From positions 3,495,033-3,515,032 of the forward strand of contig MU006089.1 in assembly GCA_010093705.1 (NCBI GenBank): a DNA stretch of 20,000 nt, read 5' to 3'. The position numbers and the translations under genes were made by a program. The notes under the pieces are model-generated. The model did no database searches and was not told the origin of the DNA. It saw only the letters and a list, made by a program, of their open reading frames with translations. Source of the stretch: Patellaria atrata CBS 101060 (lineage: Eukaryota). Of this stretch, positions 4,185-19,670 are shown piece after piece. Each line of letters opens with the position of its first letter. The stretch's first letter is position 1.

Positions 4185-5103
4185 CTACATAGCATACGCC
4201 AACATGGCAATCATCGCGAAAAGGCCCATCGCAGCAGGTTCGGCGCGAACGCCAGCACCGTCGAACTCGGACGGTGTGGGAGTCGGAACAGAATCGGTCT
4301 AAAGAAAAGGTAAATGTCAGTCACAAACGCGCGTCACATAAACAATTCAACTCACGGTGTTGGCGGGATGAGTGTAAACAGCAGTGCTGGTGACGAAGCT
4401 CTCAGACGGGACGACCGGTGCCGAAGAACCGCCAGTAGGATAGGCAGAATGTACTCCCGAAGTGACAATCTCTGTACTGTGTCCAGAAGGACTTACAGAA
4501 GACGGCACACCGGTAGTCTCAACCGCAGTCTCCTCAGGGGCGGAACTTGGCGTCTCAGTCTCGACCGGAACAGATTCTGAACCTACCGGAGTCGTCTGGA
4601 TAGTCGTCTCGGCGGGAGGTTGTGGGCTGTCGGTCGTCTCTTCAGCTGGTGGTGGTGGGCTGTCGGTCGTAGTCTCTTGCGTGGGCGGTGGAGTGGGAGT
4701 CGGTGTCGGTGTCGGTTCCGGCTCCTCCTCCGCTGGCACGGGAGTAGGATCGAGACCGCACTCTCTAGCGGCACGGCTGACACTGTTGCCGTAGTACTGC
4801 CAGATGTCGTACTTCAGAGCGCACTGCATGCAGTCGTCGAAGTGATCCTGGAACTCCTGGTTCTCGCAGAAGCCTTCGGAGCGCGAGAGCGTGATAACGC
4901 CACCTGAGCCGGTATTAGACCTTGAAAGGAGGACAGAAATGCTACCTTGGCGATTGAAAGAGAGACATACCGCAATCCTCATGACATTCGTACTGAGGGG
5001 TTCCTGGGGCTTGACGTTTGTGCATAGGCACGAACTCAGGGAAGTCAAAAGCAGCAGCCAAAAGTGGCAGTGCCGACGCAAGGATTATAGCGAAGGAACG
5101 CAT
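4185..5103 (-). CDS. Secreted GPI-anchored cell-surface protein with 6-Cys N-terminal domain and Pro/Thr/Ser/Glu stalk; exons 5103-4971, 4903-4356, 4298-4185 (264 aa)
   Basis: The signal peptide MRSFAIILASALPLLAAA is followed by a KR (Kex2-like) site. The Cys domain reads PGTPQYECHEDCGGVITLSRSEGFCENQEFQDHFDDCMQCALKYDIWQYYGNSVSRAARECGL. A PT-repeat stalk leads to the GPI-type C-terminus FDGAGVRAEPAAMGLFAMIAMLAYAM*. Introns 4970-4904 (GTATGT/CTAAT/CAG) and 4355-4299 (GTGAGT/CTGAC/TAG) keep frame, and a TATA-like element lies near 5213-5218. Confidence 0.9.
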
Positions 5104-5482
5104 GTTGAGGAGTATATTCAAACGAGTGTAATCTCAAGACAGGAAGAGTATATTCTGTATAAGGTAGAGAGACAGAGCACGAGGGAGCCATGACAGTGGG
5201 AACATGCGAGTGTATATAAGCTTACGCGAAATTAAAGAGCTATGTCGGGCATATGTCGGGTTCCTGAAGAGCGTATGCGGTACGTAAAGAAGCATGAAGC
5301 AGGAAGCAGGAACCTTAGCGAGAAATAAGTCAGTTACAGGGGAAGTTTGGGGCGCTATTGAATCACTGGAATCTCATGGGAGAACACCATTCTACATTCT
5401 GTTCGTCAACTTCCGTTGTTGCTAAAGTTGCTATAAGTTTGAGCTCTTGGGGACAAGGGAGGACATCAAACGAAGGTTCGAG

Positions 5483-6126
5483 ATCAGATTAGATCGAATA
5501 AAAGATAAGCCGACATCGGGTCTTGGCTCCCAGTGTCCCACGCCATCCTCGACTTCTTCCTCACAATTTTCACAAAAGCAATCGAAACTCGCTATCCTAC
5601 TACTAATGACTCGGATTACTTGACTAAAGTGCTCTTCTTTCATTCAATTCTTCGGGGTTAGCCGAATCCAAGTGATATGATGGTTTGACCCTATTTGCTA
5701 ACACTGAAGCGCTACATTACCTTGGCCGCATTTGCCAACAACTAACAGCCTGTTCTCGATGCGTCTTTGCATCCAATTTCTCGTCTACACTTGTCTTCTC
5801 TTGCAATCTTCCCTGTCCGATAATTTATTGATCATCTGATAATCTTATCTGACAAGCCCTCCCATCAGCACGCTAGTCCCCAGTAACTTCATACTATCCA
5901 CTCTTTCTGCGAGGCTTTTTCTCTCCCTTGACCACAAGTCCCTGGTCGAGAATTTGGTTCGCTTCTTATCATGGGTTCCAGGAGGTTACAGTTTGTAAGC
6001 ATATTCATTTAAGCGGCTAGAGAATTGCCGTAGCGTTACTACCTTCTTGTTCTTGCATTCAACCTTTCCCTTGTTTGAGTTCAATATAGAACTGCATGAG
6101 CACTAACCAAAGAAACTCCTCGATAA
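5483..6126. promoter_or_regulatory. GATA-site cluster in divergent promoter, including SreA/Sre1-type extended dyad ATCTGATAA-tc-TTATCTGAC
   Basis: ATCTGATAA at 5834-5842 is an exact ATCWGATAA match, facing GTCAGATAA on the minus strand at 5845-5853. Further HGATAR sites lie at 5503-5508, 5818-5823, 5965-5971 (minus) and 6121-6126, with a near-match ATCAGATTA at 5483-5491. Confidence 0.65.
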
Positions 6127-6323
6127 AGTCCAACTGAACTACTCTCGCTCAATAGAAGGGATCCAGAGGAGCCCGCGGGATTGTATGTGCCTAGAACTTG
6201 GCTAGTTACCGTACTTAAAACAACATAGGTCCCACTGTCCTACATAACTATAGTTTCCTGCAATACATACCTAATCTTCATCTACCCCTCTACAAACTCA
6301 CCAGACTTACATTTAGTATAATC

Positions 6324-7156
6324 ATGCATTTCTCGAAACTTGCCCTCCTCGCAGCTGCCTTTACCCGTTATGCCTACGCTGACGAAGACGTTCCCGCTCA
6401 TGGTGAGGAAGAGTCAGAAGAAATGGGACCTATAGCTTTCATGTGGCCAGAGGATCGTGAATGGAGTGCTAGTGCAGATAACACGGCTCCATGCGGTTCC
6501 AGGGCAAACGTTGGCAATCGAACGGAGTTCCCTTTGAGTATATTACGAGATCTAAAACTTTTGGGTGTGAAGTACTAACCCATATCTAGCCCGAGGTGCT
6601 ATTGCTCTTGTAGCACAGGATGAAGCTTGGACGATCCAGGTTGCCATATCCTATGATAACAGTAAGTTATCTTTTACTCTTCGTGCACTACAACCGTTCA
6701 GGAGTGTTGAATGGGCCTATATCGATCAACTCACACACAAGTATCGCTTTCATTCACTAACAAAGCTTAGATCCACAATCCAACGATGACTTCCAGACCC
6801 TCATCTCAGAGCGGATCGGAGAGATTGACCCAGGACACGTATGCTACTCTGTTCCGGAGCCATCTCGTGATATTGTTGAGAATGGTGCGAACGCCACGAT
6901 CCAAGTCCGGTACACTTCCGACTTTGGCGGTGAGCAAAATAACGAGACCTTCTACGCATGCTCAGACATCACATATGTCAACCCGGCCCAGTTCACCATG
7001 CAGATCCCTTGCTTCAATGTCACTTCGGAGAACTTCACCGAGGCGCAGGATCCTGACCAGGAAGGCGCTGCTGGATTGCCGTACAACTCTAGAGTGTCCG
7101 CCATGACCGCTGGCGTCGTCACCGCTGTTGTACTGTTCGGCTCTTGGTTGATGTAA
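6324..7156 (+). CDS. GPI-anchored BIM1-like (X325/LPMO-like fold) protein; exons 6324-6537, 6590-6661, 6771-7156 (223 aa)
   Basis: The signal peptide is MHFSKLALLAAAFTRYAYA. The motifs AFMWPEDR...DNTAPCGS...NRTEFPL..GAIAL, ISYDNNPQSNDDF, GHVC, NGANATIQV and FYACSDITYV match my recollection of the BIM1-like domain. The tail is a hydrophobic GPI-type signal (GAAG...AGVVTAVVLFGSWLM*). Introns 6538-6589 (GTATAT/TACTAAC/TAG) and 6662-6770 (GTAAGT/CACTAAC/TAG) keep frame. Confidence 0.88.
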
Positions 7157-8449
7157 ATGATGGATGATGTAATGTATGGTGCATAGTCAGTCTTCGTCTC
7201 TTTACGCGGCAGAACCCGACTAGTAAAATAAGATGTCTTTGTATATCTCTTTAACCGTTATCTTGTAGCCTTGATGGTTGACTGGTCTTGAGAGCTCTTC
7301 AAAAAGCGAAATGTGCGAACTGTCGCTAATGGATGGTGTTTGGAACAGCTGATAGCCCATGAACGCCTCCATCTAGCAGCCCGGACGCGGATTTAAGTGT
7401 CCTTGACATGCGTACCCTTCATCGCGATGTCTCCATTTCTCACTTTCCGCTAACACACCTGTATTGACAAGTCAGATAAATTCCTGCCAACTCCTACAAG
7501 AAGTGCATAACTCTCTATTGTTTACATTCAGTTGTGGCTTTTATATGAACCTCAGCCGATCAAGCATTGTGTTTTCCTGACTGTTATCGAAGTGAGGAGT
7601 AGTCACCCGGTATCGTGTATTATATTCTTGATCCGCACGTATCCGAGTACAACGACTCCAGAGGAGTTCACAACTATCAAAAACCATTCATGGGACCGGA
7701 ATCCGTAGACGGATCTTATACTCTGAAGTGAGCCGAGTATTGTCAAAAACCGTCTAATATGGTGCGGTGGTAAGATCACCATAACGCACCCTTTACCTCG
7801 GGTCTTACGGCCATGATTTAGTCAAATTCCAAGAAATAGCTGGTGATGGAGCTTGCTAGCCCCAATCTCTCCTTCGCGGCGGTGGAAGCGAATTCGTCTT
7901 ATCCCAGAAACCTTGTTTGAACCTTTATTTCAACCAAGGGTTCAATTCTTGTTCGTGTCTCCTTTTTTATCAGTCAATATTAGTTACTTAATCATCCAAG
8001 TTCACAATATAAAGAAAGGAAAGTGTTCTAAAATGACCAGTTACCTGTTTAGTCTTTTCCAATTCTTAAGTGACTGATTATCATATCGATCCTCATGTTT
8101 CGTCCGTTAGTATTCCGACATCAGAATGCGAAATGCGATGGACACGACGCCAATTACAGTTTCCTTGAAGATCATCGGACCGCTAATGCTTTCATATCCC
8201 AAGTTTCAAAAACAAAGACTATTACTTTTTCAATCAGCAGGGTTTCTTATGTAAAATGTCAAGAACAACAACACGACCGGATAATGAGCATATATTGGAT
8301 AGGAAGGAGCATAAAGATTTTTTTTTCTCAAATTTCAAATTGACTGACAATATTCTCATCAGACAGGGGAAACCTTTGGACGGTGTGTGAAACCTAGATT
8401 GACAAGACCAATAGGAAAAGGTGTGACAATCGTTCACAATACCGCAGAT

Positions 8450-9702
8450 GTTACGATTCAGCTCACAACAAAGAATCGACTCATAGGGATTTTCAGTAAA
8501 TTCTTGTCGTTTGCTCTATTACAAGCCGGATGTCTTCCGCGACACTACGGCATGAGAAATGTTGGTAGATACTTTAGTCCAAAACCGTTAAAGGAACCGT
8601 ATTCGCAAGGTATAGGATTGAGGTAGCAACCTAGGCTTCGTCCAAAGACGAAGCTGTCATGGCTACATATGGTACAGTACCATTACAACAGCGTATCAAC
8701 TTCCAGCAGGGAAAGATTTTCCATACTGTTCAAAGTGGAAGCCGAGAGCGAAAGTAAGTTGAAGCCCCGGAGGAGATGTAGTTCACCAGTTCTGAATGCG
8801 GGATATAATTCCTCCGGCCATTGCAGTTGAGATATCATAGGTAGAACTAAGCAAAAGTGACCCAAATGTGAATAGTCCGTTGACTTATCACATGTTGTGG
8901 TGAACCTTGATTCGATATCAGATATCAGACGAGCGTACCAATAGAAATGCGGAAGCTCAACGGCGAACCCGTTCAGACCCGAAGCTGTGGGTGTGGAACC
9001 CGGGGGATTCCCATCCACGGCATCATCAGCTGCTGTAACAGGTGCATCTCACATTATGTCCTTGAGTTCTGAAATGCCATAGTAACTCATTGGGTGGATG
9101 AAATCAGAATAGAGATACTGCATAGCCGGGAATAACCGCTATTTGATGCAGATTCTAGAAATTTTCCAGCGATACTTTCCGATGTCTACTGTGCTGTACT
9201 GTGCGTACGGACGGAATATGTGTTGACGTGAATGAAAGTTTTGAGCTGAACTGCTGTGAAACAACGGAAGAGACATCCTATCATCCCCGGCCGTTACAGT
9301 CGCCCTTGTCCTCTTGGTTCCATCGTCCGGGTGAAACTGTTGATATCAAGAATATTTGCTGGGCCAATCCTGAAACGAGAAATAAAGATAGTTTTGACAT
9401 TTAGGATCAAGCTCCGAACGCTTCCTAATGCAAAACCTGTAGATTTTCTAGAAACTTGACCTAAATGGGAAATCCCATGCGAATCATATCACGATCGCAA
9501 AACTTCGCGATGCGATGGATCAAAATTTCATCCTCCTGATCCCACTTTCGAATTTTGCGGGACACATTGCGCATCGTCCAGGAACAGAATTACAGCACAT
9601 GGCATTACAGCGAGTCAGGTTAAGCAAGATTCGAATGCGATTAGGAATCTGTACGCGGAGCTTCCACTGAGAATTGAGCGGAAGTTGCAGTAATTGAGCC
9701 AT
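8450..9702 (-). pseudogene. Possible decayed F-box/LRR-type gene remnant(s)
   Basis: The ordered fragments MAQLLQLPL...LLNLTRCN (9702-9520), NLHQIAVIP/QYLYSDF (~9150-9100), WPEELYPAFRTGELHLLRGFNLLSLSASTLNSMENLSL (ORF 8683-9018) and GFGLKYLPTFLMP resemble fungal F-box/LRR proteins. They are broken by stops and frameshifts, and the boundaries are approximate. Confidence 0.3.
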
Positions 9703-9737
9703 AAATCCTCATATGCCATAATGCCAACGTCGTTGAG

Positions 9738-9752
9738 AAAAAAAAAAAAAAA
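9738..9752. repeat. Poly(A)15 tract
   Basis: 15 consecutive A residues read directly from the sequence. Confidence 0.9.
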
Positions 9753-12201
9753 GAACAATCCTCTAGTTCTAACGGTTTACTTTTTTTGTACGGTGGTCAG
9801 TCCGCTCCAAAAGTCCCGGAAAAGCAGTCAGGGAACCTGAAGATAGTACCTTACTAACCTAAGGTAACCCACTCTCCATAATATCTCATCCCGCACTCCC
9901 CCAACCCGTCAGCCCGTCTATCCCATCCGTCTCCAAAAAGGCAGTAAGAAAAGTTCCCCAAGCGCGCCAAAATCCTACGCACGCGTCCTCCGCCGAACCC
10001 TGTCCACCGGTCTCTACTCGGTACCACCACACTTTTGCGCTCCCCCACCTTCCAGGTTAGATGCTTTCCCCCTCTTTCCCCATCAACCCCACCACACGTG
10101 CACTGAACTTTGTCCAAAACACGTTCCTCGGTAAGAAAACTACCGACATCCGCATCCTCTACTCCGGATTTCCCCATATCCCCAAACAATACGCATAGAA
10201 TAATAAGGTACTATACTCTACTGTACCGTACCTTACCCTACCATCGTTATCTCAACACCAATGATTGCACGCAAAAAACCGTGGCGCCACCAACATGTTC
10301 CTCCGCCCCCATCATCTACATTCACACCCTTGCTCTACTTCACTACTCGTCCGAAGCACCGTTCTTAGATGGAGCGAGGGGCCGGGTGCAAGCATGACGG
10401 CTGAAACCGGAGTACCTTAAGGTAGTACTGTACAAGGTAGATATCACCACCTTATACTACTGTAGAACATGGGGAATTTTTGATGTGGGTGTCGTGGGGT
10501 TTGCAGAGGGGCAGAGAGGCGCGGGCCGCGCGGGACGAGAGCGCAAGAGCCAATGGGACAGAATCCGCGCCGGAGGGCGGGATTGACTAGGCGTTCGACG
10601 GTTTGCCGCGTCTGGTTTATTCGAGTTTAGCGGGCTCCCGGAGCTTGGTGTCGGCTCGATACCTAATAAGGTAAGGTAATAAGGCGGGGCTACCTTAATA
10701 AGGTGCTGAGGTATTTTAAAAGAATAGAGGGCTGAGGTGTGAGGTGAGAGCTTATTGTGCATACTGTACAGTAGTAACATTTGTGATGTATGATGTATTA
10801 TGTATGATCTTTTTTCTCATTTCTCCCGCCGGAGAGTGAATAATATTCCACTGGGTGCGCTTAAGCCTGGCTCTGTAGGGCTTCATCAAGAGACGGTTTG
10901 CGAATTTGCATACGCAGGGCAGGGCTCATGCACCACATGTAGCGTGTAAACTGCATTCGGGGAAACGGTAAGGATGCAAGTAAGGTTGTCAGAAGGTTGT
11001 CGGAAATAGTTTTCATGGAATTGGATTTTTGATTGGGTGCCTTTTTTTTTCCATTATACCATCACTTACGAGTTGCGCAGGCTTTTACCATGTCTTGGAT
11101 TTTTATCTGCTGAAGAATATGGGTCGCGTCGAAGCCGTCGGGATGGATGCCAGAGAAGGAACAGCTAGCTCTAGATGAAGGGAAGATGTTGGAACAAAGC
11201 TGCAAGCCTTAACTCCTCGGACTCCTAGAGAGGCACCAGAAGGCAGCGGAGGCTTACAAGCTATCGTAGCCTTCGTAGCTTTTAAGCGACTGGTCTTGTG
11301 TAAACCCTGGTTACAGGAAATTCCAATGAGCCGAAGGATTTCACCTGCATTTTCTTCTGATCTACTGAAGATCAGAGACGTTTATTCGCAAATCTCTTCC
11401 ATAAACATTATACGGTATGCTGTATGCGAGTCTTTCAATTTCGTGACTCATTACCATCCCTCTACATTCTGCAACGGGCTTTTGATACTCCGGGGAAGTA
11501 CAATATTCATAACCACGAATATCATTCCCCCCTACTGTAGAGATTAGATCAACGAAACCTGCTTCAAGCCTTTCTCGCTTCATAGTCCGGCTGCCGCCTC
11601 TTACGCACCTATCTGCACTGCTGCCCCTAGCACTGCAACGTGATTGAGGAAATTACACGATGCGCACATGCTGTACGAACAACACACTTGATACTCCATC
11701 GTGGATAGCGCATCCTACGGACACGATCCTGCTGTGTAAATCTTCAGCAAGTCGGGAATCACTACCCATTCACTGGAGCAATGAGATATGTTGAATGGAA
11801 CTATGCTTCGCTAGCAATCAGAGAGAGTAAGTTGGTAGAGCGTAGATGGAGAGAACCACGAAAAGCGAGATTGTGTATACTCGTAGAAGATCCTGATATG
11901 CAACAAATACGCTCTTCGGTGAAGGTTCCGGTCGTTTAGTTTTCATAGTACTGCAAATGCATTTCCTATGATGATGACGTAATGGTCATTTAAACCAACG
12001 ATTCCAGTCGTGGTCCCTGACCGTATAGTAGGGATCATCGTATCACCATACAGGATAACCAGAGTATATGTTCGAAGGTTGCGAATGAATGCCTCCAGGC
12101 CTAGAAGCATTCTTCTCGTATGGGTGAAGTGGCGAGATACCGTATGATTTTGCTCAGTTTATAGGCTGGTAATTCAACAATAGAATAGTTGGATAAGGGG
12201 T

Positions 12202-13109
12202 TCAAACGAGTATATGGTTCGTTTCCAGGGAATGATCCGCTTTTACTTCATGTCTTTTTACTTGGTTCAGTCCAACGCGGGTCTCGTTCTTCCCGTAAAC
12301 GATCATGATGCCATTGAGCAGAATACTGACTTCAAGTTCCCTCAGCTTCTTGCTATTGAAAACATCTAGGTCAATAGAAAGTAGTTCTCCAACGTTCGTG
12401 TGACCTCTCCCGGAACTGTCGTTTCTGGCTTTCTTAAACCAAGTTTCTGGACCGATGGGCATATGCAATATGACTTGCAACTCTTCGAGATCCGGTAGGG
12501 ATGATGCGAGATCTAGTATGGCTCGTTTCAAGATACTAGTTCTTTTGGCAGTCGACCACCACCAATTTGCGGCGGTGATATCAATGCTGAGCTGCCTTTG
12601 GATCTGGAGAATCGGTATTTGTAACCAGTTCGGGGGATGAAGAAGCTTCTCATCATCCTGCATGGCTATACGTACGCGAGCCGCATTGGCAAATCTACTC
12701 CAATGAGATCTAAAGTTTTGATTAAGGGTGCGGTGCAAGTGAGGGCCAGAAAAGCTTACCGGCTGACACTGCTTCGAGGGTCTCCAGATAAGTAAGTCTT
12801 GAACCATCGAAGGTATTCTGACCGGATTTGGTAATTTACAGCCAGAAGATTCATGTGAGGACAATGAGGATATTCAACCCATTGGATTAACCAAGGAGAA
12901 TGTCGGCCGAATAAGGTAGAAGCAGCTACTTTCTGTCTTGTCGGATTGAGGCTGCTATATATCTGATATCTTATCTCAACAGGGAGAGATAGGAATTGTG
13001 ACTCTGGAATGGAGTGCTCTGAAAGGGAACAGTCGAAGGCGACTGAGTGTATGATGTCCATGGTAGACAACTTGTCCCAAGGACAGTAAAGGCGGGGTGA
13101 AGACAACAT
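12202..13109 (-). CDS. Hypothetical protein with N-terminal F-box-like motif; exons 13109-12760 and 12709-12202 (~285 aa)
   Basis: The motif SQFLSLPVEIRYQIY...NLLAVNYQIRSEY is typical of fungal F-box-like/2EXR-type proteins, and LPDLEELQVIL occurs later. A 50-nt intron 12759-12710 (GTAAGC...CTTAAT...TAG) joins ORFs 12756-13169 and 12202-12864 in frame. There is an alternative ATG at 13061. Confidence 0.75.
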
Positions 13110-13417
13110 TGTTGAAGCATGAAACAACAGGAGTGGATGAAGTGCGGATGGATATTCGTCCCCCCTCAAATATCAAAGAGAAGGCCTAACTCATGATCGG
13201 CAGTGATTGGCAAGTGATCAGCGATGTGTAGTTTCGACCCGTGTGTTGGTAAAAAGTTCGGCTTGCAAGGCTTATCTGGCCGTCTCTTTGTGCGCGCCGC
13301 GTCACAGGTACTTGGGTGCGTTGATGCCCTTGTATGGAATGATGGTGGTGGTCGCCGTTACGGAAGCTTGGTAATGATAAACTCGATGGGAATTTTCTTT
13401 CATGTGTGTTATTTAGC

Positions 13418-13444
13418 TTGCAGGTTGCAGGTTGCAGGTTGCAG
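13418..13444. repeat. Tandem 7-mer repeat (TTGCAGG)x~4
   Basis: TTGCAGG TTGCAGG TTGCAGG TTGCAG lies in the intergenic region between the divergent F-box-like and RCM1 genes. Confidence 0.85.
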
Positions 13445-13729
13445 ATTTGCAAGAAGCATAAAGATATGCTGGAGGGACGTCAGGGTTGTTCGCGTAGAAC
13501 TAGAACGTCGTGTGCGTCTACCGTACCTAGTACTCTTTCTAGTCCACCCGTTTTTAAACACTCCGGTCAGATTTTGACCCCCGTACAATTATTTTATTTT
13601 CCCGCCTTTGCCAACGAAGAAAAGAAAAAAGAAAAAGAAGTGTACCAAGTGTAACCGTAGTACCGGTAGTGGGCGAGAAAGTGCCCAAACGTGGCCCGGT
13701 AATTGTGACGAATATCACTACCTAGAAAC

Positions 13730-15802
13730 ATGTCATTGTACTATGAAGCCGCATCATTGCTGGCTAACTCGGACTGCGCTGGAGGTTCTCTCAAGTCCCG
13801 TATTTACGGGAAACAAGGTTTGAAAAGTTCGTCAGCTGCAATCTACGCTCTTATCACGGAGGCTACAAAATGGTCCGTTGTTTTGAAGGAGGTGATTGAG
13901 AGAAGTGGTCTGCTCAAGGAGGAGAAGAAGGTATGTACAGTACTGCTTTCAAATTACTGTGCTCGGCCGGCCAATTTGTCTGACTTTATTCAATGTTAAT
14001 TTCTGATCCTAGCCTTGGCCATCATGGCTATGATCTTGTCTATATTAAGTGTTATAGAACTGGAGTTTTGCCACGTGTGTTTTCATGAGAGAGGAGAGGG
14101 CTGACCGTACTCCCAGCTTACTCCAACCCTCGCGCTTCTTCTGACTCACGACCTTCTACTCTCAAAAAAAGGAGTTGCTGCACCGGTAAAGCACCCTTTA
14201 AGGATTGCAATTAATAGACATAAAGGCCGTCTTGCCTCGGAGTTGACTCTCGCCCGTATACGACGCGGCTTTGGCACGCTCGAAACTTTTCGGAAAAGTG
14301 TTGATTCTGGCGCGTCGGCCGGAGATTCCACGGCAACCAGGGGTAGCTCTTCAGAAGAAAAAGAACACCCAAGATGGGTCAGAGTAAATACATTGAAGAC
14401 TACAACTCAAGAACAACTGAATAGCACCTTCGAGGCTTATAAGACCGTTGAAAGCTTGGTGGAGCTTTGCGCGGCCAGACCAGATGCGAAATGCATGCGC
14501 CTGGACCCCCATATCCCCGACCTATTGGCTCTTCCCCCACGCGCAGACGTGTCAAACACTAAAGCATACTTGGACGGGGATATTATCTTGCAGGACAAGG
14601 CGTCCTGTTTTCCTGCCTACCTGCTAGACGTGCAGCCTGAGGATGAAGATGTCATTGACGGTTGTGCGGCGCCAGGGAACAAAACTACTCATCTTGCAGC
14701 TCTTATTTTTGGCAGGAACGCGCCTACAAAGACTAATAGATCAGCAGCTAGCAAGCCCAGCAGCAAGAGACGGCAGATCATTGCCTGTGAAAGAGATAAG
14801 ACGCGCGCGACTGTGCTGGAGAAGATGGTTGCCCGCGCTGGTGCTTCCTCCTTCACCACCATCAAACCAGGCCAAGACTTCCTTAGGCTGGATACGAATT
14901 CCGCAGATGTGCAGAAAGTGGGTGCCATTCTGCTGGACCCCAGCTGCTCTGGCAGTGGCATCATCGGTCGAGATTACGCATCGGCCCTTCATCTTCCCAG
15001 TGTGGAATCAGCTAACAATCACACCACGACACACGTAAGTCAGAAACGAAAAAGGAGCCAGAAGCAACCCGTTATAGCAACTTCAACTGCTCGCGATCAC
15101 GATGAGTATCCTCGCATCGACGACGGTCCTATCAGAGATGGCCCCTCAGACCCACCACCCCCTGACGCTTCTGATCCTACGGACCCAGCAGTCAGGTCCC
15201 GGCTCGAGTCGCTCTCCGCATTCCAACTCCGCCTCCTTACTCATGCGCTGGCCTTCCCCTCCGTCACTAAAATTTCGTACTCCACCTGCTCCGTTCATTT
15301 CCTCGAAAACGAAGCAGTCGTCCTCCGCACCCTCCACTCCCCCATCGCCCGATCCCGCGGATGGCGGATCTTAGGTCGAGACGAGCAGATTGCGGGCATG
15401 CGGACTTGGAATGTGCGGGGTGATAGGGCTAGCTGTGAAGATTTTGACGTTGGAAATGACGGCGATGGTGGGGTAATGACGATGCAAGAAAGGAGAAAGG
15501 TTGCAGAAGCTTGTTTGAGGTGCGAGAAGGGTACGGATGAGGGAACAATGGGCTTCTTTGTTGCAGTATTTGTAAGGGATGAGGGAAATAAGGACCATGG
15601 CTCGAACGCAACTACTAAGCTAGCGAGTAAAGATGACAGTATGGGGGTTGACGAAGAAAATGGAGAAGAAGAGTGGCAGGGATTCAGTGACGAAGATGAG
15701 AATACCGTACCTGACCTATCGGGCGATGCATCTAATACAAATTCATCAAAGTACAGGTCGACGTCATCTAAACGGAAACGGAAGTCAAAACGTTCAAAAT
15801 AG
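13730..15802 (+). CDS. RCM1: 25S rRNA m5C methyltransferase Rcm1/NSUN5 (NOL1/NOP2/Sun family); exons 13730-13930 and 14117-15802 (~628 aa)
   Basis: The N-terminus is MSLYYEAA..GGSLKSRIY. Family motifs are LLTHDLLL, PRWVRVNTLK, LQDKASCFPA, DGCAAPGNKT (SAM binding), LLDPSCSGSG (motif IV), YSTCSVHFLENEAVV (motif VI) and GFFVAVF. Intron 13931-14116 (GTATGT...GCTGAC...CAG) keeps frame. Confidence 0.95.
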
Positions 15803-15950: not shown

Positions 15951-18441
15951 CTACCGATTCCCTCTTCTCCCACCCTTCTTTTGTCTCTCAACATGCCCCC
16001 TTAGGATTTTCCTTGTCTCTACTACACTCCTCTTCCCCTTCTTCTTCGCTTTCCCTAGGGTCATTAGGAAGTTCTTCTGACGTTCCTTCTCCTTGTTGGT
16101 CGTGCTCTTACCCTGCTCTCTCTTCTTCTCCTTTCTGATAGACGTCGTGCTGGAATGCTTCTCAACTTTGTCGCCCTTCGCACGCGCGATCTTTTCCTCC
16201 CTAGTAGCTTTATGAGACAGTGCAGCGAGGCCCTCAATTTCAGCTGCTGTAAGAGGATCGTCAGTATGTCTTACGGTGGTGTTAGAAGCCTTGCGACGAT
16301 TAGAGGGGAGTAGACAAGAGACGGAGGACTGGAGGCGAAGTTCTTGAAGTTTAACAAGATCGGTTGGCGTGAGTATTCGAGTTGTCGCTAGGGTCGAGAC
16401 CTTGGTAGGGTTATCGGTTTCGCCCGCGCTCTGGTTCTCCTTCTCAGATTTTGCTTCGTCAACCTTTGTTTTCTTCGATGGCCGTTTCTCATCTTCACTG
16501 TCGCTAATATCAATACCCTCCCCATCACTTTGAACATCGATCCATCCTCTGGAATCGTCACTTTCGTCTTCTTCAACATCCCATGCACCCCAGTCTTCCT
16601 CTTCCTCTTCGACATCTTCACCTTCCTCTGCCTCAGGAGGTAGGCCTATCTCGATTCTCTTCTTTCGTCTTTCCTCATCTTTCCACTTTTCGAGTAATTC
16701 TAGTCCTTCGATTTGCCCTACTTCCTCTTCACCATAACGCTTCTCTTTCTTTTCTCCAGACCGTAAGCCTAATGCCGCTTCCTTTCCCCTATCTCGTTTC
16801 TTGAGCATGTCTGCTCCTACATCCCTATACAAACTTAGGAGACCTTTTGCGGCCATCATAACACCTTTGTCTTTACTCTTACGATACATAACTAGATCTT
16901 GAAGCAGAGTCTCATTCATTGCTAACGGTTGTCTAGCGCAGATTTCTCGAATGGCGTTAAGACCCGCTGATACAACTTCGGCCGCCACGGCTTCTGATAC
17001 AAATTCATTAGCAATCTTCTGGATTAGCGGTTCAAGACTATCCGGTGGCACAAAGTTGTGAGTGGACTGAGCTAAGGACGCCAGGAAAGAAGTTACTGAA
17101 GGTTGCCGAGGAGTTAGGTATCTGGAGGAAAGTAAGTGACTAGAATGAATATTCGCAGAATGGAGAGATGAACTTGAGAAAGTATGAATATAAGCTGATG
17201 ATTGTCAGTTTATGTAAACCGACAAGCCTTGAGACGAGTTGTAAAACAAGCAGTTTCTGTTCAAGTTTCAAAGTAGATTTGGAATTCTGTAAATGTTTCG
17301 AAAAAAGCGATTCGGCAAAGCCTTGAGGATCATGGAGAAGATGGAATGCAGAAAAGTTTAGCAGATGCGGCTGATTCCTCTTTCTCTCTTTCTGATGAGG
17401 TTGGGTTAGCAGATAAACGGTAATCTAAGAAAAGAATTTTCACCTTTTTGACTGTAGCTGCAGCTTTTTTCAATCCTCTTTCCTTCTTTTTGGTCTTTTT
17501 ATTGATCCCTACTTGATGCCGTAATTGTCTCATGTCTATCTCTTCTTCGTCACTACTGTCATCCGCAGCTTCTTCACGCTCTTTATCGCCCCCTAAGAAG
17601 AATCTGACCGCTCCCGTAACGACCTTGTTATTATCCGCTAGACTAGCCTCTTTCATTATTTCGACGGTCTTAGAATCCGTCCAGATCTGACGTTTCCACA
17701 ACTCTCGCGTGATTTTGACTGCCCATAAAGCCTTTGGCGAAGATCGATCAGACGTAACTAGATTGAACATGACCGTCTGCATGGTACGGTTCAGCCGATG
17801 GTTTGTAGTCTTCGAATTTGAATTCCTAAGATCAGAGAGGATCTTTTGTAGTAGTAATGAACGGAGAGTCTTGCTAGAGGTTGAGATGAGAATTGGAAAG
17901 AGCGTATTAAGGAGCCTATTGGATATTAGCTTAGATTGAAGATTCTCCTTCTAGACCCTACACACACTGAAGAATCCACAATTTCCTTCTTACGCAAGAG
18001 CACTAAGCTACCTACGACCTTCTCCCGTAGCTCAGGCTCGAGACTCTCATGATGTAAGGTCAGTAATCCTATCAATTGATCCGGAAATTCTGCTGTTTCC
18101 GCAGGATAGCAGTCTGCCACATGCGCGATGAAGTCAATGAGGTCTCTGAGCGAAATAATCCCATTGTTGTTTCCGGAAGATGGGTTTTGGATGAACAAGG
18201 ACAACTGGTTACCATATGTAAGGTACTGGTTTTCGAAATCTTGCTTATAGGACCTAACTTGCGTCAAAACATTTGTAGAGGATTTTGAAGGACGTCTGCT
18301 TACTGTGGATCTCTACGTATTTTGTGCTGAAGATTGGCACTGACAATATTAGTTCGATTCGCAACGATGTGTGAGAGAGTTGTGGGCTTCTTACAGGTCA
18401 GCATCTATTTTCTCTAGTGCCGCTACCTTTCGTTTTCCCAT
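15951..18441 (-). CDS. SDA1: 60S ribosome biogenesis/export factor Sda1; exons 18441-18395, 18339-18304, 18253-17966, 17915-17444, 17391-17174, 17121-15951 (743 aa)
   Basis: The spliced product reads MGKRKVAALEKIDADLANLQHKIRRDPQSYKQDF...ELWKRQIWTD...RFFLGGD...LLHDPQGFAE...YLTPRQPSVT...GLNAIREICARQPLAM...KGVMMAAKGLLSLYR...KSTTNKEKERQKNFLMT. Five 50-55 nt GT-AG introns give an open frame totalling 2232 nt. Confidence 0.96.
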
Positions 18442-19670
18442 ATCGTCCAAAGATTTATACCCAGAGCTAGATACGTTCGTGTATTGGTGAGTAGCGAATC
18501 TCCTTTCGTAACTCTGCGTGTTGCTACTCGAAATTCTCTGAGCTCGGACCTAAGCACGAGCCATTCTAGACACTGATCTATTATCGATAAGATAAGATAA
18601 TCAATTCGAATAAAGCAATGATAAGTTAAAGTCAACCACAAACCTCTATACACCACTTCCAAAAGAGTATCAATAACGTTAGCGTGCAACGTAGAGTAAC
18701 TTTGGACTGCCCTGGTAAGCGAAGGGATGAGTTAGTATGCGTAGTCTCCCCGAATGATTGAATAATGTTCGGGCTATTCTAGCCGTAATTGTTGTGCGTA
18801 GAAATCTCTTCAACGGGAAACAGCTCGTCCCACAAATTTCGTAAAAGTCGTCAGATTCTAAACGTAGCGACCGCCCGTGTAAAGACATGCAAAGCATGGC
18901 CAAGAACAAGAGCTCATGGTCAGGTGTGTGCATACTTTACAGTATTTAGAAGTTGATCAATTAAGCTTCTTGTCCGCCCGAACTTACAAGTCTAGAAATT
19001 ATAGGCTCGCTTCAATTCAGGCTTTTTTCTCATCTAAACTCTGTTAAGCTTCGATTGGAAATGCAGACTGAAGCTATCAATACTTTAACAGGTTTGGTTT
19101 ATAGAAAGTAAAATTGCATCATCGCTAGGATTGATTTGGTCTCAGCGACCGTCTTTCCAGGTGGACGGGTTCTCATCGAGAATAACATGAATATATTGTT
19201 TTGTTTAGATAATGAATACTAAAGGAGAAAGTTCAAAGACATCATAAATTAAGATTAAGAGTGAGAAGATGGAATTACAGATTTCAGCTCCTAGGCACCC
19301 CACATGTAGCATAGGAAGGCAAGAAGGATTAAAGATATCAGCAGGATAATTTGTTCTGATGTTATCTCGGTCCACTTGGGTGTATAAGTACAGTACAACG
19401 TGGCTGGCGCAAATGGTATGCGAAGCCATAATCACTGAACGGTGAGATATGGTAAGGACATGATCAACCAAATAGAGGATAGTACTTCGCTCAGCGGCCA
19501 TAACAGTACGAAGGAGCGCAAGAATTTCTCAATGGGGCTATATTATTTTGTTTCAGTCTAGTTGAAGCGTGGTGACAACGTGTGAAATGCAATGAGTACG
19601 GAGAGGGTAGGAATATAAAAGAAAAGACACTTGAAAGCTCTATTTTGTTCATTACATAAGGAATATTATA

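Follow-up and report, generated by a model that had tools for sequence, protein, structure and literature searches.

Genes A and B lie in a 20-kb stretch of contig MU006089.1 of Patellaria atrata CBS 101060 (the whole stretch analysed is called the window below) and are divergently transcribed. Gene A occupies the minus strand (4185-5103), with exons 5103-4971, 4903-4356 and 4298-4185 (stop codon included) encoding 264 amino acids; the translation is 100% identical to the annotated hypothetical protein P0004 of the same strain (264 aa). Gene B is located on the plus strand (6324-7156), with exons 6324-6534, 6590-6661 and 6771-7156 encoding 222 amino acids, and both of its introns show canonical GT...CTAAC...AG signals. 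An earlier note on this DNA had proposed divergent transcription from a 1.2-kb promoter. The gene models confirm this, with 1220 bp (5104-6323) between the two start codons, and we treat this segment as the shared divergent promoter. Comparison with related loci suggests that A and B are a conserved, probably iron-regulated pair of cell-surface proteins with a likely role in iron acquisition.

The conservation of the pair was surveyed by a metagenome scan with a seven-row alignment of gene A, followed by tblastn with exons 1 and 3 of gene B. The scan gave 28 loci with an A homologue. A B homologue is found in 16 of these (L002-L005, L007-L013, L015, L019, L021-L023), in all 16 on the opposite strand and 0.8-1.5 kb upstream of A, as in the window. 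In the other loci, the corresponding intergenic segments are 761-1380 bp long. Several of the loci are near-duplicates, and the pair is represented by approximately 10 independent lineages whose promoters cannot be aligned. The divergent arrangement, for which the earlier note had suggested a search in other genomes, is thus conserved. Seven loci without B (L001, L006, L014, L017, L018, L020 and L024) have upstream DNA covering just 14-1113 nt; in L016, L025, L026, L027 and L028, at least 1.4 kb of upstream DNA is available and tblastn did not find B. The outer flanks vary between loci (gluconolactonase, Fig1/SUR7, ribosomal L17, eIF2B, patatin, GT90, MOSC, MFS transporters and others), and since these genes differ, only the A-B pair is retained.

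The promoter in the window contains an inverted pair of extended GATA sites at 5834-5853, with ATCTGATAA on the plus strand (5834-5842) and GTCAGATAA on the minus strand (5845-5853), separated by a 2-bp spacer. This head-to-head pair, already described in the earlier note, is a predicted binding site of an SreA-type iron repressor. Within the window alone it does not exceed chance; the exact word ATCWGATAA occurs once (0.47 expected) and at least once in 69 of 200 shuffles, and the significance of the pair therefore comes from the comparison between loci. The further HGATAR sites that had been counted in the promoter (at least four) are present at 5503, 5818, 5966 and 6121, but they carry no signal. 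They are uninformative because generic HGATAR is at chance density, with 64 sites in the window (68 expected) and 6 in the 1220-bp promoter (about 3.9 expected from the window density).

All 17 A-B promoters (16 loci and the window) contain at least one exact ATCWGATAA. The sites are located mid-promoter, 340-740 bp from either start codon, and 6 of the 10 non-redundant lineages have two or three exact copies. In 11 loci taken as non-redundant, 18 copies fall in 12,595 bp of promoter and 6 in 147,279 bp of flanking DNA, corresponding to densities of 1.43 and 0.041 per kb (a 35-fold difference). The chance of at least one site per promoter is about 0.05; finding 10 of 10 independent lineages positive would therefore have a probability of about 1e-13. 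The motif is not residual alignment, because the ten promoters have almost no 12-mers in common (pairwise, at most 11 of roughly 1000). When the ten promoters were compared with 111 chunks of flanking DNA for every 6-, 7- and 8-mer, without preselection of words, parts of ATCWGATAA rank first, and the top 7- and 8-mers all belong to the motif. ATCWGAT is present in 10/10 promoters (17/111 chunks), TCTGATAA in 8/10 (5/111), CTGATAAG in 6/10 (1/111) and GATCATCT in 7/10 (4/111). The element singled out in the earlier note is, across loci, the top-ranked word of these promoters.

The HGATAR core is common to all fungal GATA factors, and together with the lack of significance in the window alone, this would be consistent with sites that serve nitrogen factors of the AreA/AreB type or that have been retained by chance. 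We regard either as very improbable. The ATC extension is conserved as well as the core, as the counts for ATCWGAT and TCTGATAA indicate. Generic HGATAR is at background in both the window and the promoters, which confines the signal to the extended site, and the figure given above for ten unalignable promoters argues against chance retention. The assignment to an iron repressor agrees with the motif of the SreA regulon (PMC2610380, section 12). In that source, ATCWGATAA shows a 5.4-fold enrichment among the promoters of 49 Aspergillus fumigatus genes that depend on SreA, and plain HGATAR is barely enriched; the in vivo sites of orthologous repressors at Ustilago maydis sid1 and at Schizosaccharomyces pombe str1 and fio1-fip1 also fit the extended motif. 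The A-B promoters thus carry the same extended motif as the A. fumigatus regulon, and here too it is the extended site, not the plain one, that stands out. On this comparison, the iron wiring of the pair is well supported, and we consider iron regulation, taken by itself, to be highly probable.

The second conserved word in the promoters is GCCAAGA(GA) / TCTCTTGGC. GCCAAGA is present in 9/10 promoters compared with 27/111 control chunks, the longer word CCAAGAGA in 6/10 compared with 4/111, and the hexamer GCCAAG in 10/10 compared with 63/111. The word contains the PacC-like core. In the window promoter, GCCAAG is found at 5522-5527 (minus strand), with further copies at 5721-5726 and 6197-6202 and the related CTCTTGG at 5444-5450. 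Of the 13 sites in the window that match GCCARG, the PacC/Rim101 consensus, 3 fall in the promoter. A CCAAT box is located at 5773-5777 on the plus strand, 57 bp from the GATA pair. Among copper-regulator words, GTGCTCA occurs in the window promoter as a single copy, which is at chance level.

The extended site also occurs upstream of A homologues for which no B was detected (L018, L020, L025, L026, L027 and L028). Three of these, L025-L027, form a distinct A subfamily. In L025 (8619-9100) and L027 (1837-2300), this subfamily has the stretch C-x-x-C-V-A-Q-P-D-L-S-Y-I-W, no R-Q stretch and no B neighbour, and ATCWGATAA is located about 170 bp upstream. The solo A of L025 adjoins a DUF4396 gene and a TMD0-type ABC transporter gene. 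In L019, four further copies of ATCWGATAA are located just downstream of the A homologue (11344, 11803, 11860 and 12425). The gene that follows them encodes a secreted-looking protein (frames 12862-13422 and 13447-13827) without a Pfam match. Its nearest protein-atlas clusters by features include clusters of periplasmic binding proteins (Peripla_BP_2; score 0.91, a lead only), and this gene could be a third one under iron regulation next to A and B.

Protein A has a signal-like hydrophobic N-terminus and a propeptide-like stretch up to R30-Q31, followed by a head with six cysteines, a Pro/Thr/Ser stalk of about 135 residues (approximately 100-235) and a short hydrophobic tail resembling a glycosylphosphatidylinositol (GPI) signal. 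Signal peptides and GPI anchoring of both A and B were assigned by eye. The head (residues 31-100) is encoded by 4737-5013 on the minus strand, split by the intron 4904-4970. A profile search of 1.84 billion representative sequences retrieved 362 relatives at E <= 0.001, of which 252 pass E <= 1e-10; almost all have lengths of 110-300 aa. The seven relatives with names belong to Dothideomycetes, Eurotiomycetes and Sordariomycetes. In an alignment of 147 relatives, the conserved part corresponds to residues 30-100, with R30 kept in 96% and Q31 in 90%; C40, H41, C44, G45, C57, C69, C72, W79, Y82, C93 and P99 are kept in 93-100%.

The AlphaFold2 model of A, calculated with the 147-row alignment, shows a three-helix bundle (helices 36-50, 60-72 and 79-92) for the head and a disordered stalk. 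The predicted local distance difference test (pLDDT) score is 95-98 in blocks of 10 residues over 41-100 and 87 for the block 31-40. The six cysteines of the head are probably all in disulfides. P0004 has no Pfam family and no match to CFEM (PF05730), and the 147 relatives give stray low-complexity matches only; CFEM is matched by 0/147 among the 25 families shown of 33 matched (E <= 0.1). The head would be a new, nameless small domain family with 362 representative relatives. Two database proteins, P0043 and P0045, show an A-type N-terminus fused to a mitochondrial-carrier-like C-terminus and are probably merged models of neighbouring genes. A further relative, P0019 (1709 aa), contains six tandem domains related to the A head with Ser-rich spacers between them; its C-terminal part consists of Thr-rich repeats and a hydrophobic tail, and the protein resembles wall adhesins of the yeast type.

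In a different reading, A and B are wall-remodelling, adhesion or stress proteins that use iron and pH only as a cue and bind neither metal nor heme. We consider this improbable, although several observations are consistent with it. No metal site could be located in A or B, the probable disulfides would occupy all six cysteines of the head, and the adhesin-like P0019 carries six A-like domains. The appressorium wall protein family CAP22 is a weak protein-atlas lead for A (scores 0.75-0.76, under the tool's bar), and PMC9258870 links Bim1/Cbi1, which belongs to the same family as B, to wall integrity as well. Against this reading, an invariant histidine, tyrosine and tryptophan are retained in the A head, and two unrelated surface proteins are strictly co-retained under an iron-repressor site, as in known iron-capture pairs.

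Protein B has a signal-like N-terminus, a BIM1-like/X325 domain, a short linker and a GPI-like hydrophobic tail. Exon 1 matches PF20238, the BIM1-like copper acquisition factor family, with E 3.6e-10 (profile positions 1-37), and exon 3 matches it with E 4.4e-16 (positions 68-139); both exceed the curated cut-off of 27 bits. The comparison with Bim1 in the earlier note therefore turns out to be more than an analogy, but it does not extend to the histidines of the copper brace. The sole solved relative of B is LaX325 (PDB 6ibh). In an alignment of nine exon 1 translations, a variable stretch of 3-15 residues after the signal-like segment is followed by an invariant Gly-Pro. W41 of B lies opposite W6 of LaX325, which places residue 1 of LaX325 at the invariant G35-P36; the B clade thus has no N-terminal histidine. 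The signal cleavage site of B was judged by eye.

For the remaining brace positions, the B homologue of L019 was used, in which the first intron (57 nt) keeps the reading frame and so leaves a single uninterrupted open frame. This read-through frame gives an alignment to LaX325 that covers the entire domain (E 6.4e-8). In it, the LaX325 segment 38-53 with H49, the second brace histidine, pairs only with the in-frame intron, and the spliced protein is without this segment. H25 of LaX325 has no histidine counterpart in the B clade. A single histidine is invariant in the clade; it belongs to G-H-x-C and is aligned with a threonine of LaX325. The invariant aspartate in F-Y-A-C-x-D-I/V-T aligns to the aspartate of C-A-D-V-T in LaX325. 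D44, D52, N53, a Q-D-E stretch and the tyrosine of F-Y-A-C-x-D are likewise invariant in B. In X325 proteins, according to PMC10952591, an aspartate is added to the histidine brace as a fourth copper ligand. By profile, B is a member of the BIM1-like family, and the alignments indicate that it has lost the copper histidine brace.

The C-terminus of B differs between loci. The window and L019 versions end in a GPI-like tail, whereas five of the seven homologues from other loci with a readable 3' end (L007, L009, L012, L015 and L021) terminate in a transmembrane helix and a basic, cytoplasmic tail; the anchoring mode has switched within the clade. Of the two secreted, GPI-anchored, cysteine-containing proteins proposed in the earlier note, the cysteines are confirmed in the sequence and the signal-like starts and hydrophobic tails by eye, but five of those seven B homologues have the transmembrane helix in place of a GPI-like tail. 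An acidic stretch resembling H-G-E-E follows the signal-like segment in four of nine B homologues (the window, at 6378-6425, L002, L007 and L019) and is not conserved in the remaining five. In L002 and L007, its histidine is the third mature residue if the by-eye cleavage is correct. Exon 1 of the L004 homologue (8585-8786) gives weak matches in two different frames (E 5e-5 and 4e-7), which may reflect a frameshift or an assembly error.

Membership of B in the BIM1-like family raises the question of copper. Under iron control, the pair could scavenge copper in the manner of Bim1 with Ctr1, and would be induced in iron starvation to supply the copper-dependent ferroxidase of reductive iron uptake. 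The aspartate that aligns to that of the CADVT stretch is retained, and the HGEE-like stretch lies near the mature N-terminus in the four homologues named above. The brace histidines, however, are gone, and no Ctr gene is found near the pair in the window or in the surveyed loci. Nor are copper-regulator words conserved in the promoters: TGTGCTCA is present in 1/17 and TTTGCKCR in 2/17 (both words are Mac1/Cuf1-type consensus sequences). We therefore judge a copper-scavenging role to be distinctly improbable.

We favour, at slightly better than even, the reading that A and B are a conserved pair of iron-regulated cell-surface proteins acting in iron acquisition. Because the pair stays together around a promoter that always carries the iron-repressor site, a role in iron uptake is probable, and the pair is probably a new part of this process in fungi. 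When iron is sufficient, a GATA repressor of the SreA/Fep1/Urbs1 type would sit on the shared promoter; A and B should therefore be induced jointly when iron is scarce. An alkaline pH may add to the induction via the PacC-like sites. The small disulfide-stapled three-helix head of A would be carried into the wall on a long glycosylated stalk. B would hold an X325-fold domain, with the copper brace lost, close to the membrane on a short linker. This is the combination of a long-stalked and a short membrane-proximal protein that the earlier note had described. In the gene models, the small head of A stands on about 135 stalk residues and B has a short linker, and we infer from this a geometry of capture and hand-over. 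The pair would capture a ligand that carries iron (a ferric chelate, a siderophore or heme) or hand it on towards a membrane uptake system. Capture and relay are put forward as a hypothesis, and the earlier interpretation is partly supported: the iron wiring is well supported by the comparison of loci, and the relay function is hypothetical. A further step is possible but rather doubtful, namely, that this X325/BIM1-like clade swapped its copper brace for a site that handles iron (as ferric ion, ferri-siderophore or heme) and forms with A a two-tier wall-to-membrane relay that is widespread in filamentous ascomycetes and controlled by SreA.

Several results weigh against an acquisition role for the pair. 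In the surveyed loci, where the earlier note had suggested looking for reductase or transporter genes, a gene for a ferric reductase, a permease or a siderophore transporter does not recur beside the pair. The L025-L027 subfamily occurs solo, and A is therefore not strictly dependent on B. L016 has neither ATCWGATAA nor B in the 1.6 kb upstream of its A match. Outside the window, the pairing counts come from metagenome loci. Foldseek with the A head gave no solved-structure match at E <= 0.001, and VIA-align returned generic helical bundles only (best Z 6.2, root-mean-square deviation 3.2, 63 residues). The fold model of B has a mean pLDDT of 49.8, too poor to place a site; its input was the L019 read-through frame with a 19-residue intron-coded insert and a patchy 15-row alignment. 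Among the SreA regulon genes discussed in section 11 of PMC2610380 (main text), there is no such pair. 

The predicted complex between the A head of Patellaria and the B domain of the L019 organism scores 0.28 (mark 0.34), which is evidence neither way. Just two sequencing runs were found to contain the A-B region; both turned out to be DNA, with contigs that span it completely and show no joints. A search for full-length B relatives among 87 longer candidates gave none at E <= 0.001.

Outside the pair, the outer neighbours in the window are housekeeping genes: an Rse1-type propeller gene (1-558) and Mss51 (1127-2879) on one side, NSUN5 (14105-15800) and SDA1 (15954-18312) on the other. A gene for a 2EXR protein is located at 12.2-13.2 kb. 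No transporter or reductase gene is present in the 20-kb window. Between 7200 and 12200, only short frames are found (none longer than 122 aa between stops), and a Pfam scan of the four longest (118-122 aa) gave no match. The guanine-cytosine content is 0.37 at 8001-8500. The region from 2.9 to 4.1 kb likewise contains only short frames without Pfam matches. The housekeeping setting given in the earlier note is thus correct. Where the note placed decayed DNA, these short frames are what is seen, and 7200-12200 may be gene-poor or home to genes of unfamiliar families. In L009, a reverse transcriptase fragment (RVT_1, E 1.7e-21) is located at 18169-18612, 8 kb from the pair.

Iron uptake is decisive for growth and virulence in many fungal species. 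The surface players known so far (CFEM hemophores, FIT mannoproteins, Shu1 and Cig1) are few, and yeasts provide the best-studied cases. If the assignment is correct, filamentous ascomycetes have a further conserved surface pair under the iron repressor. The X325 fold, hitherto linked to copper, would then have an iron-wired branch without the copper site, which would affect the annotation of all BIM1-like genes. Among the top-ranked matches in the full-text literature, nothing was found that connects BIM1-like/X325 proteins, or a pair of this kind, with iron regulators.

The closest relatives of B among described proteins are Bim1/Cbi1 of Cryptococcus neoformans and the LPMO-like (lytic polysaccharide monooxygenase-like) X325 group (DUF6595) with LaX325, as B likewise belongs to PF20238. 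B shares with them membrane anchoring at the cell surface and the aspartate of the C-A-D-x-T stretch. Unlike Bim1 and LaX325, it has no N-terminal histidine and no counterparts of H25 and H49. Its promoter carries the iron-repressor motif instead of copper-regulator words, and its conserved partner is A rather than a Ctr transporter. In Pseudogymnoascus destructans, one of three BIM1-like genes is reported to be unresponsive to copper (PMC12113139), and not all members of the family are therefore copper-regulated. Genes of the SreA regulon are often found in small clusters with shared promoters, according to PMC2610380.

A second comparison is with surface proteins that are induced by iron starvation. 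The wall mannoproteins FIT1-3 of Saccharomyces cerevisiae and Shu1 of S. pombe are GPI-anchored and retain siderophore iron or heme at the surface; Cig1 of C. neoformans, also induced by iron starvation and retaining siderophore iron or heme, is grouped with them. None of these is known to form a conserved pair with an X325 protein. Their likeness to A and B is by description. Cig1 is a GPI-anchored mannoprotein (PMC12797982); the passages of that paper on Cig1 are silent on an X325 fold, and the terms Bim1, LPMO and AlphaFold are absent from the paper.

CFEM genes form divergent pairs with FRP genes (FRP1-PGA7 type). The CFEM hemophores of Candida albicans (Rbt5, Pga7 and Csa2) form a relay from wall to membrane (PMC4183699 and PMC9635878). 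Small helical disulfide-rich heads, GPI-anchored proteins of different reach and an iron-responsive GATA repressor are common to that relay and to A and B, for which they are predicted from sequence and models. The A head has six cysteines instead of eight and, as noted above, no CFEM match, which agrees with the separation from CFEM made in the earlier note, and the partner of A is an X325-fold protein. If the relay outlined here is correct, it would represent a third kind of fungal surface iron capture, in addition to CFEM hemophores and FIT mannoproteins.

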